Assembly (NCBI RefSeq): GCF_050320075.1 | Contig: NZ_CP190018.1 | From: Escherichia coli | GTDB lineage: Bacteria; Pseudomonadota; Gammaproteobacteria; Enterobacterales; Enterobacteriaceae | DNA: 64,000 bases | Reading direction: 5' to 3' (one strand) | Part shown: positions 24,001 through 27,000 of the stretch, in pieces | Layout of the letters: each line of letters begins with the position of its first letter | Numbering within the stretch: the first letter of the stretch is position 1 | Made by a program: the position numbers

Positions 24001-27000
24001 CTATATGGCGGCAACATCCGTTTAGCCTCTGGAAACGGATGTCACCAGTAGCTGGTGACTGAGGTACGTTATTTTTACCTTCGGATTACCCGTACGGTTT
24101 TGTATGTCATGAAACTTACGAGTTTTCCTCTCGCAGAGTGGCGAAATGCCTTATATATCTGCGTCTTAAAGATTTTCTGTCTGGCTGCATGAGCTTCTTG
24201 TGACTGTGCGCACGGCATAAGGCCATTTGAAATTTGGCTGCTTGCGTGTGTACGTGGAGTCTGAAGCTGTGCGGCGTCACTTGCGTGCGACCGGAGGGAA
24301 CACCAAGTGACGCCACAACAATCTGCCCTGAAAGCAGCATCACGTAAGGCCTGCCAGAAAATCGTCGCTCGTGACCAGCGTTCTGATGACCGTTTTGTCT
24401 TTCTGACAGCGTCTTTCAGTAACGTGTCCATGCCTTTCCGGCGCGTCCGTTTTCACGGACGGCCACGCCGGAATGTCTTTTTAAACTTCATAATACATGA
24501 GAGGTAAGTGTATTAACTTGTTGAAAAAAGGAATAAATATGAAAAATCGTTCTGATGTCGGAAGGCGTCATCGTAAGATGACGGGGAGTAAAAAATCGCC
24601 CTGGTGCACAGGTAGCGAACTCCTGTAAAAACTCAACATGTGCAAGCTCTGCTACATCAACATCAAACGAGCCAGGAAGGCGAGCAACCGCGTTACAGAG
24701 CCGTCCGTGATGACGAAAAACTAACAATATCAACGATCTGGTCTGTTTATCGGAAGGGCATCTCATGCAGTTGAACTTTCAGAACGGATGGTTTTCTGCA
24801 TCTTTTTTAACAGGGGGATTGACGTTATGTCCCGTAAATCGTCACGTTCCAAAGTTGAAGTCTTTCGCAAGTCATTCATCTCACTTGCCCGTGATTGTGG
24901 TGGCAGCTACGCAACAACCGCTGACAGAATGCGAATTGCCAGATACTTTTTGAATTATTTGCAAGTAAACGGTATCAAACTTCGTCAGACGGGCAGTATT
25001 AAGACGAGGCATATTTCTGGTTATCTTCTCAGCAGGAAAGAGCAGGGGATCTCTCACCGCACAATTCAGAATGAACGGGCAGTTATGCGCGCAATTCTGG
25101 AGAAAGATGGTCGCCTTAAAATAGCGGATCCGTCCAATCCTTTATTGAGCAATGAAGCTCTTGGACTCAGGGATACATGCCGTGATGGTAAAAAGATACC
25201 ACTCTCACAGGATGAGTTTAATAAAGCCTTCAGTAAGGTTGAAAAAAATAATCCCGGTGTTGCTGCAGTAATGCAACTTTCTTATGTTCTTGGACTGAGG
25301 ACAAAAGAAGCTGTTCAGTCTTGTAAATCAGTTAACTCGTGGCTACGTGAACTTGATTCAGGGCATGATTCTCTTCTCGTTGTTTTTGGGACGAAAGGTG
25401 GAAGGCCCAGAGATACAACGATCATTAATCGTGATGCAGTGAAACATGCGCTCATTTATGCAAAAAACATTATGGATAAACAGAATGGTAAACTTATCGA
25501 TCGCCCCAATATTAAACAGGCTATAAACGTATATCGTTACCATGTAAGAAAGGCTGGTTTATCTGGAGTGAAGGCACCACATAGTATGCGTTATCATTTT
25601 TCGCAGGAAGCAAGGCAGTTTTATCGAAAAAGTGGATATGGAGATAAAGAAATTTACGCAAGGGTTTCCATGGACCTTGGTCATGGTGACGGAAGAGGGC
25701 GTTATGTAAAACAGGTCTACTTTAAAGGCGCTGATGAGAGCTGATATTTAAAATGAATCCGGAGGATATGTGTTTTTCGCGAACTTATTAATTTCTGTAA
25801 TAAGAATTTCTGATGAACGATTACACATGCTCTCATTAAAGTATCCTATATGGCATTCATGGATGCGGCAATTTAGTTTTCTGGATAGCCATCTGTTTGC
25901 CTCGTTACGGGATATATTTGTTTTTTGCTGATAGCTGTCAAAAAGTTTACGAACTTGTGCTCTGAGTATTCTCAAATTTTCTTTAGCTGGAGTACCTAAT
26001 GGTCTCCCTGAATTTTTATGACATCCAACCTATGCATTGCATGGGCTGCAAATCCAGTAATATTTGTTTTCTGTAGTGGGTGTCGAGGAAAATGGCATAA
26101 GTGCACCTTTTCTGAGTTGTGCCTTATTACCACAGTAAGTGCAGATTACAATTGGACGAACATCTGCAATATTCAGTGCTGCATAAGTCAGACGTTCATT
26201 TTTCATCATGTTTCGTTTTCCACAGTCAGTGAGAATATGCTTTATTGTGTCTAATTCTTCTCGGAGTATTTTTGAACGGACACCAGTTCGATAACGCTGT
26301 TGAAAGTAAAGCTCAATATGACGTAGTTTTATACTATTTATTGATTTTATCTGTATATTGGATTCTTAAAGAAATGAAGCAAATCTTCTGGCTCTCCCCA
26401 TATATACCAGTATGTCTTCTGGTGTCGGGGCGCATGCTTTAGCTATTTTTGATTAGTTCATCTTTTAATTTTTTGTATTTCGATTTCATCCTGATATTTC
26501 TCTTTAAGGTTCATTAAGAGTGTTACTGAGTAAAAAAATATCAAATTAAGTATTTATTGTCATTCAGTTGTAGCTTCTCAGCAGCTCCACGACAATAACA
26601 ACTTGAAGTTTTATGCAGTTTGTGCTTACAATTTAAACGCTAACTTGTCGCTTCGGCGACCAACCAATCTCCCGGTGGTCTGAGAGGGAGGCTTACGCGA
26701 CCACACTGTCATCTTCGGATGACCAGCCAATGTTCCAGCAGTCTGAGAGGAGCGCCTTCGGGTGACTGCCAGCTAATGTTTCAGCGATCTGAGAGAAACG
26801 CCTTCGGGTGATTGCAATATCCTCGTAGCCTGAAAGGGGATGCCTTTATGGCGGTACATCCGTTTAGCCTCTGGAAACGGATATCACCACTGGTGATTGA
26901 GGTACGTTACTACCAATACCGGATTTATCGGTTACATTTCTTAATTAACTCTGCTGGCTGTATTGTCACCAGTCAGCATTACCTGACGGATTTTCCAGTC

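Follow-up and report, generated by a model that had tools for sequence, protein, structure and literature searches.

A tyrosine recombinase gene preceded by STAXI and EFASI motifs in an integrative conjugative element of Escherichia coli

The STAXI motif was named for the genes near which it resides, encoding Ssbp, Topoisomerase, Antirestriction proteins and XerDC Integrases (Weinberg et al. 2010, PMC2864571). A second motif, EFASI ('Enterobacteriaceae, Frequently Around STAXI and Integrases'), lies, by its Rfam description, several hundred bases 3' of STAXI and 5' of integrase genes (Rfam text quoted in PMC12370729). Here we analyse a representative of this arrangement in a 64,000-nucleotide (nt) stretch of Escherichia coli DNA from contig NZ_CP190018.1, hereafter called the window, in which the gene for a 305-amino acid tyrosine recombinase of the PF12835/PF12834 family is bracketed by two direct structured repeats within an integrative conjugative element. 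The repeats are copies of STAXI, and an EFASI motif resides between the first copy and the gene (Table 1). An original prediction, made from the sequence alone, had interpreted the gene and its repeats as a small excisable or invertible unit. However, the arrangement on which it was based is already documented, because Rfam describes the order of STAXI, EFASI and integrase, and the locus is an instance of that known association. Compared with the described STAXI/EFASI systems carrying 'XerDC-type' integrases (PMC2864571; PMC12370729), it exhibits the same motifs in the same order, enterobacterial hosts and antirestriction neighbours, and it differs in nothing essential. New here are the position of promoters relative to STAXI, a test of whether STAXI folds on the coding strand, a hairpin located between the two motifs, and a second STAXI copy following the gene in about half of the related loci.

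We consider it probable that the recombinase gene is a conserved backbone gene of Enterobacterales MPF_G-type elements that resides behind a structured leader, and that the second repeat is the leader of the next transcription unit rather than a partner site for recombination. The gene would most likely be transcribed from the sigma-70 promoter P1 through a structured leader of ~980 nt that carries, in order, the STAXI pseudoknot array, an invariant hairpin and EFASI, and that ends at the ribosome-binding site. Repeat copy 2 would be the promoter-proximal STAXI leader of the next unit, which runs through the antirestriction gene ardA. Thus, the gene would look bracketed because promoter-plus-STAXI modules head successive units. 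The leader might act as an RNA that controls expression, and the recombinase would act on a single site elsewhere, for which the best candidate is the region of the hairpin in its leader. A possible role at this site would be, for instance, multimer resolution of the excised element. What remains is an unexplained conserved module, in which an intact recombinase family resides behind two Rfam motifs, one of them (STAXI) described in 2010, in conjugative elements with resistance genes (mcr-1 in the present case). Experiments on the recombinase and on both motifs could be guided by the location of STAXI close to promoters, its folding on the coding strand and the gene-linked hairpin.

The recombinase matches Pfam Integrase_1 (PF12835; 5.7e-53, full model) and, in its N-terminal portion, Phage_int_SAM_2 (PF12834; 1.1e-22). 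PF12835 is one of five families in the Pfam clan DNA_BRE_C (PMC8371274), and by this profile match the protein belongs to the tyrosine recombinase superfamily. Across 22 diverse homologues, with identities down to 53%, the invariant residues include R158 (GLRxKEA), K190 (FGTKGGR), H252 and R255 (PHSxRY), H286 (LGHGDGRG), Y293 and Y298. The catalytic residues are retained even in a clade with 41% identity, which argues for retained chemistry. An AlphaFold2 model of the protein (pLDDT 88) adopts a two-domain fold composed of core-binding and catalytic domains. When this model was used as a Foldseek query, the top matches were lambda Int, Tn1549 Int, Cre and XerH, each with a probability of 1.0, and the phage repressors YopR and SroF were also among the structural matches. 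Searches of solved structures by sequence, both with the single protein and with a profile, gave no significant match, and a search of NCBIfam gave no match. Profile alignments to Cre, in which R158 is opposite Cre R173, and to the element's own XerC/D-like integrase had probabilities below 2% and provide a hint only.

Judged by homologue alignment and the structural model, the protein is an intact tyrosine recombinase with a complete catalytic set, for which Y293 and Y298 are both candidate nucleophiles and activity is predicted. The original prediction was therefore correct in assigning the gene to the tyrosine recombinases, and the catalytic tyrosine on which that assignment depended has two invariant candidates. 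The protein has 1,585 relatives in the protein database, mostly from Enterobacterales, and their usual labels are 'integrase domain-containing' or 'DNA-binding'. The family is nearly absent from phages, with 2 weak matches among 50,697 records, and its distant members reside on very small plasmids. In the literature, we found no experimental study of a PF12835 protein and none on the function of the family.

The two repeats, whose starts are 2797 nt apart, are separated by a gap of ~2.6 kilobases (kb), as had been noted. They are 98% identical over their first 124 nt, with one additional 46-nt unit in copy 2. Because both copies score well above the Rfam gathering score for STAXI (40.5 bits), the match is far beyond chance. 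The EFASI representative likewise exceeds its gathering score (51.2 bits) and lies where Rfam describes this motif. The STAXI stems and pseudoknot helices covary: 88% of cells are paired, 26 pairs exhibit compensatory changes, and none of 500 shuffles reached the score. The covarying pseudoknot unit occurs two or three times. An early covariance model built on an RNAalifold structure mispaired the STAXI units, and a model with an Rfam-like structure was used in its place. Among STAXI base pairs, G-U pairs are counted 344 times on the coding strand vs 105 A-C pairs, and therefore the coding strand is the folding strand. In addition, folding is better than that of shuffled sequence both for the entire leader (23841-24830; z = -6.75) and for the portion between STAXI and EFASI (z = -4.5).

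Each STAXI copy in the window is preceded by a sigma-70-like promoter (P1 and P2) at a like offset of 13-14 nt, though the flanks of the two copies are not homologous to each other. The same position recurs in related loci, where the 250 nt upstream of 116 STAXI clusters contain 80 promoter-like sites, compared with 7 in control stretches, and where these sites peak sharply 10-20 nt from the start of the model. STAXI and EFASI RNAs have been detected in E. coli vesicles by reverse transcription quantitative polymerase chain reaction (RT-qPCR; PMC12370729), and UUCG loops favour RNA (PMC2864571). Jointly, promoter positions, covariation, strand bias, folding and RT-qPCR detection favour a promoter-proximal leader RNA.

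To place the locus among its relatives, we scanned one genome per species and recovered at least 80 loci whose recombinases are 47-69% identical to the protein described here, which together with the window gives 81 Enterobacterales loci. STAXI copies were located with the covariance model, and counts over 77 loci refer to those with enough flanking sequence. All 118 STAXI copies found in these loci are on the recombinase strand. STAXI resides 5' of the recombinase gene in 71/77 loci, with a median of 670 nt between its 3' end and the start codon, and EFASI resides 5' of the gene in 75/81. Spacing is also conserved across genera, at 300-650 nt between STAXI and EFASI and 75-200 nt between EFASI and the start codon. 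Of 68 loci, 33 have a second STAXI copy no more than 2 kb downstream and 35 do not, so the bracketing that had been noted for this gene is found in about half of its relatives. In 15 of those 33 loci, the second copy begins 56-103 nt after the recombinase stop codon. STAXI is also found apart from integrases (PMC2864571). Its contexts on large plasmids and in O157:H7 islands are relics disrupted by insertion sequences, and they were set aside as uninformative. Several Xenorhabdus genomes carry three to five recombinase modules each, all with EFASI and the hairpin and with STAXI scoring more weakly.

The hairpin between STAXI and EFASI is exact in 68 of the 81 recombinase loci, and 77 have it when up to one mismatch per arm is allowed. 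It is present as a single copy per locus, always 5' of the recombinase gene at a median distance of 451 nt and never downstream. Most of its variation consists of G-U pairs or compensatory changes, and it is far more conserved across genera than the recombinase protein. A search against Rfam returned no match for it. The hairpin loop contains a G-N-A triloop closed by G-C pairs, which we take to resemble stable DNA mini-hairpins. For what the recombinase or its regulator recognises, this hairpin offers the most promising lead. A parallel is offered by plasmid multimer resolution systems (XerCD/cer, Cre/loxP, ResD/rfsF), which likewise pair a single tyrosine recombinase with one strictly conserved candidate site per replicon beside the gene, and the distant homologues on very small plasmids would fit such a role. 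However, the candidate site here has arms of 10 base pairs (bp) around a self-pairing spacer of 19-21 nt, whereas the core sites of these systems have a spacer of 6-8 bp.

Other portions of the leader are conserved as well. A block upstream of the hairpin (Table 1) is near-invariant in 14 loci of different genera. A purine tract, AAGGAG(G/A)AAA, directly precedes EFASI (24526-24546) in most loci with no start codon following, and this tract might belong to the EFASI structure or serve as a decoy for ribosome binding. An open reading frame (ORF) beginning from this conserved AAGGAGG was considered and rejected, since most loci lack a start codon there. A small ORF between STAXI and EFASI (24307-24507) was likewise rejected as a gene, because the Salmonella ORF at the same position is not conserved with it.

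The leader also occurs without the recombinase gene. Two small plasmids, NZ_CP059920.1 (p3, 3140 bp) and NZ_CP100506.1 (5319 bp), carry the STAXI-hairpin-EFASI leader and no recombinase. The first is a 3.1-kb Rep plasmid that is present in two element-bearing strains and retains the -10 region of P2. The second contains the stretch corresponding to 23848-24819, which extends from the putative region of transcription start up to the ribosome-binding site, with unrelated DNA beyond it; by its sequence, this plasmid carries the leader as a discrete module. Five of six occurrences of leader-bearing small plasmids are in strains with this recombinase allele, though the allele is present in only 32 of 5,426 complete E. 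coli genomes. MOB-suite classifies p3 as 'mobilizable', but this was rejected as a hint of an origin of transfer in the leader, since the 5.3-kb plasmid carries the leader too and is classified as non-mobilizable. There is a very slight chance that the entire 1-kb leader (STAXI, hairpin and EFASI) is more than a regulatory 5' region and represents a nucleic-acid partner of the recombinase. The enzyme could then recognise the hairpin in the form of RNA or of folded single-stranded DNA and employ it as a site or cofactor, and leader plasmids could exploit the enzyme in trans. If true, these plasmids would use the recombinase of the element for resolution or for cointegration and transfer.

If the recombinase instead used the two STAXI repeats as direct sites, it would excise a 2.8-kb segment that includes its own gene and leave one repeat behind, as the original prediction had proposed. 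The predicted single-repeat deletion junction and circle junction were built and searched in the 5,426 complete E. coli genomes at a coverage of at least 80% of the query, and neither was found in any of them. All 32 genomes with the recombinase allele keep the full locus, so the single-repeat alleles anticipated in related genomes are missing from this collection. An invertible unit, the other possibility that had been raised, is excluded because the repeats are in direct orientation.

Some exchange between repeats has nevertheless occurred. In strain GF43, the backbone of the element is 97-99% identical to that in the window, and the block from 23967 (mid STAXI-1) to 26981 (72 nt past STAXI-2) has been swapped for a homologous block whose recombinase is only 41% identical. 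On plasmid p3, a copy-2-type -10 region and STAXI are joined to the downstream leader of copy 1, which is the configuration expected from a crossover of STAXI-2 with STAXI-1. The three observed breakpoints lie at differing places, namely mid-repeat, at the 3' end of a repeat and 72 nt beyond a repeat. Because they vary from case to case, they fit homologous exchange better than a fixed site-specific crossover. The repeats thus recombine occasionally, and neither the GF43 swap nor the p3 hybrid implicates the recombinase. Of the earlier claim, the recombinase assignment and the bracketing by direct structured repeats are supported, and excision by the recombinase is not.

Several of these data also weigh against the preferred interpretation, in which the recombinase is a backbone gene behind an RNA leader and the second repeat belongs to the next unit. 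The p3 hybrid and the GF43 swap both reflect recombination at or near the repeats, and rare excision would escape the assemblies because only ~32 E. coli genomes carry the allele. With the second STAXI copy so often close to the recombinase stop codon (15 loci), a functional link between recombinase and STAXI is conceivable. P1 and P2 are consensus matches only, and promoter matches within 23600-27100 are no commoner than chance. Furthermore, STAXI and EFASI have no known function, and the discoverers of STAXI left open a role as single-stranded DNA (PMC2864571).

Excision between the repeats could draw on the complete catalytic set of the protein, on the flanking direct repeats here and in 33/68 loci (with the second copy within ~100 nt of the stop codon in 15), on the p3 leader and on the replacement of the GF43 segment from STAXI-1 to STAXI-2 as one block. 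We nonetheless regard it as very unlikely. Besides the absence of junctions from all 5,426 genomes and the breakpoints at three different places, two direct sites do not always accompany the recombinase (35/68 loci lack a second STAXI within 2 kb), STAXI exists also without integrases, and the repeats are covarying arrays of small pseudoknots, apparently without the paired inverted binding arms that flank a 6-8-bp spacer in recombinase core sites. They have sigma-70-like promoters directly upstream and fold on the coding strand, and a role as the recombination sites of an excisable cassette is not supported. Integrons (IntI/attC) resemble the locus in that a tyrosine recombinase resides beside structured repeats that fold as single strands and bound cassette-like units. 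In contrast to integrons, however, the protein belongs to PF12835 and not to the IntI family, only two STAXI copies are present, and the difference in gene content between loci with ArdA and loci with ArdC is not bounded by STAXI. No integron-like empty or rearranged arrays were seen in the loci compared. Because the excision model does not hold, the locus is not a new mobile cassette.

Two further explanations retain the conserved architecture and assign it a different purpose. STAXI, the hairpin and EFASI might function as folded single-stranded DNA during conjugative transfer, serving as priming sites or single-strand promoters like ssi and Frpo, with the recombinase as an early establishment gene. 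Repeated structured elements ahead of antirestriction and establishment genes are indeed typical of Frpo and ssi in plasmid leading regions (Masai and Arai 1997; PMC11541004), and the position of the locus within an ardA-containing cluster, the leader on small plasmids, the G-N-A triloop closed by G-C pairs and the suggestion of Weinberg et al. (PMC2864571) are all consistent with such a role. A Frpo-type promoter, however, requires folding of the strand that serves as template for the genes downstream (Samuel et al. 2024, PMC11541004). In STAXI it is the coding strand that folds (G-U 344 vs A-C 105), there is no long hairpin to restore -35 and -10 boxes, and ordinary double-strand promoters reside directly upstream. 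UUCG loops also favour RNA. STAXI was thus rejected as a Frpo-type promoter, our literature search found nothing linking it to Frpo, and we judge a single-stranded DNA function unlikely. Somewhat different is the proposal that the protein is inactive as a recombinase and that, like YopR and SroF, it has a recombinase fold but works as a regulator binding DNA or RNA, which would control the leader by binding the hairpin region. The presence of these two repressors among the structural matches, the invariant hairpin strictly linked to the recombinase gene, and a neighbouring gene that reuses the N-terminal domain fused to a zinc finger would all suit a regulator. Set against them, all catalytic residues, including both candidate tyrosines, are invariant down to 41% identity, which makes this proposal quite unlikely.

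Table 1. Features of the recombinase locus and its host element (positions in the window)
Feature	Position	Strand	Details
Promoter P1, sigma-70-like	23805-23834	+	TTGACG, 18 nt, TATTCT, TG before -10; ends 14 nt before repeat copy 1
STAXI copy 1	23849-24071	+	Hairpin, then pseudoknot units; RF01728, 89.1 bits, Rfam match 23910-24069
Conserved leader block	24217-24246	+	ATAAGGCCATTTG..TTTGGC
Invariant hairpin	24270-24317	+	Arms GCGTCACTTG (24274-24283) and CAAGTGACGC (24304-24313), 20-nt loop; between STAXI and EFASI
EFASI motif in leader	24547-24669	+	RF02957, 70.7 bits; 157 nt 5' of recombinase start codon
Shine-Dalgarno-like sequence of recombinase gene	24813-24818	+	GGGGGA; 9-14 nt 5' of ATG 24827
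Tyrosine recombinase gene, PF12835/PF12834 family	24827-25744	+	305 amino acids; ATG 24827, stop 25742-25744
Disrupted gene, PF12834 N-domain and DUF3268 zinc finger	25748-26488	-	Stop codons here; intact (246 amino acids) in strain 64.1
Promoter P2, sigma-70-like	26603-26632	+	TTGAAG, 18 nt, TACAAT; ends 13 nt before repeat copy 2
STAXI copy 2	26646-26909	+	One extra 46-nt unit; heads next gene cluster; RF01728, 138.1 bits, Rfam match 26707-26860
ardA antirestriction gene	28399-28908	+	RefSeq annotation of identical locus; PHROG antirestriction family; in cluster after STAXI copy 2
MOBH relaxase (ICE_TraI_Pfluor)	55198-56886		TraD coupling protein also encoded in the element
XerC/D-like integrase	56940-57929		Next to tRNA-Phe
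tRNA-Phe	58126-58201		Followed by chromosomal speF

E. coli chromosomes, e.g. that of strain YZLc1-3, carry the window sequence at 99.5-100% identity, and the locus resides within an integrative conjugative element of the MPF_G type. Positions 1-20 kb are occupied by type IV secretion genes. As is characteristic of this type, the element carries conjugation genes of the PFGI-1/ICEclc kind (TIGR03743-03760 families) and TraD, together with a MOBH relaxase and, at tRNA-Phe, an integrase. MPF_G elements are reported to be rich in STAXI (PMC5587801). The recombinase gene is located directly after the type IV secretion genes, where it heads a same-strand cluster with antirestriction genes. Synteny is equal in Salmonella and Xenorhabdus, in which TraG_N is followed by the recombinase, small genes and then ArdC. 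The disrupted gene on the opposite strand, which reuses the N-terminal domain of the recombinase, was considered as a conserved partner and rejected, because among the 81 loci it is confined to this lineage.

Other portions of the element carry accessory genes. The colistin-resistance gene mcr-1 (35230-36855, minus strand) and pap2 (34436-35182) reside between two IS30-family (ISApl1-like) transposase genes; the region (33372-38052) thus represents an insertion of a colistin-resistance transposon like Tn6330 into the conjugative element. Within 39305-44439, there is a second tyrosine recombinase gene (39305-40744, minus strand), and its product aligns with a site-specific integrase that in strain 64.1 resides beside a shufflon pilV adhesin and type IV pilus genes. 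Given the recombinases at 24827, at 39305 and at tRNA-Phe, the element therefore encodes three tyrosine recombinases. Upstream of the locus, the conjugative element also carries a type-B (zinc-independent) ribosomal protein L31 paralogue (21574-21837), and in the O157:H7 island remnant an L31 paralogue likewise resides beside the STAXI copy.

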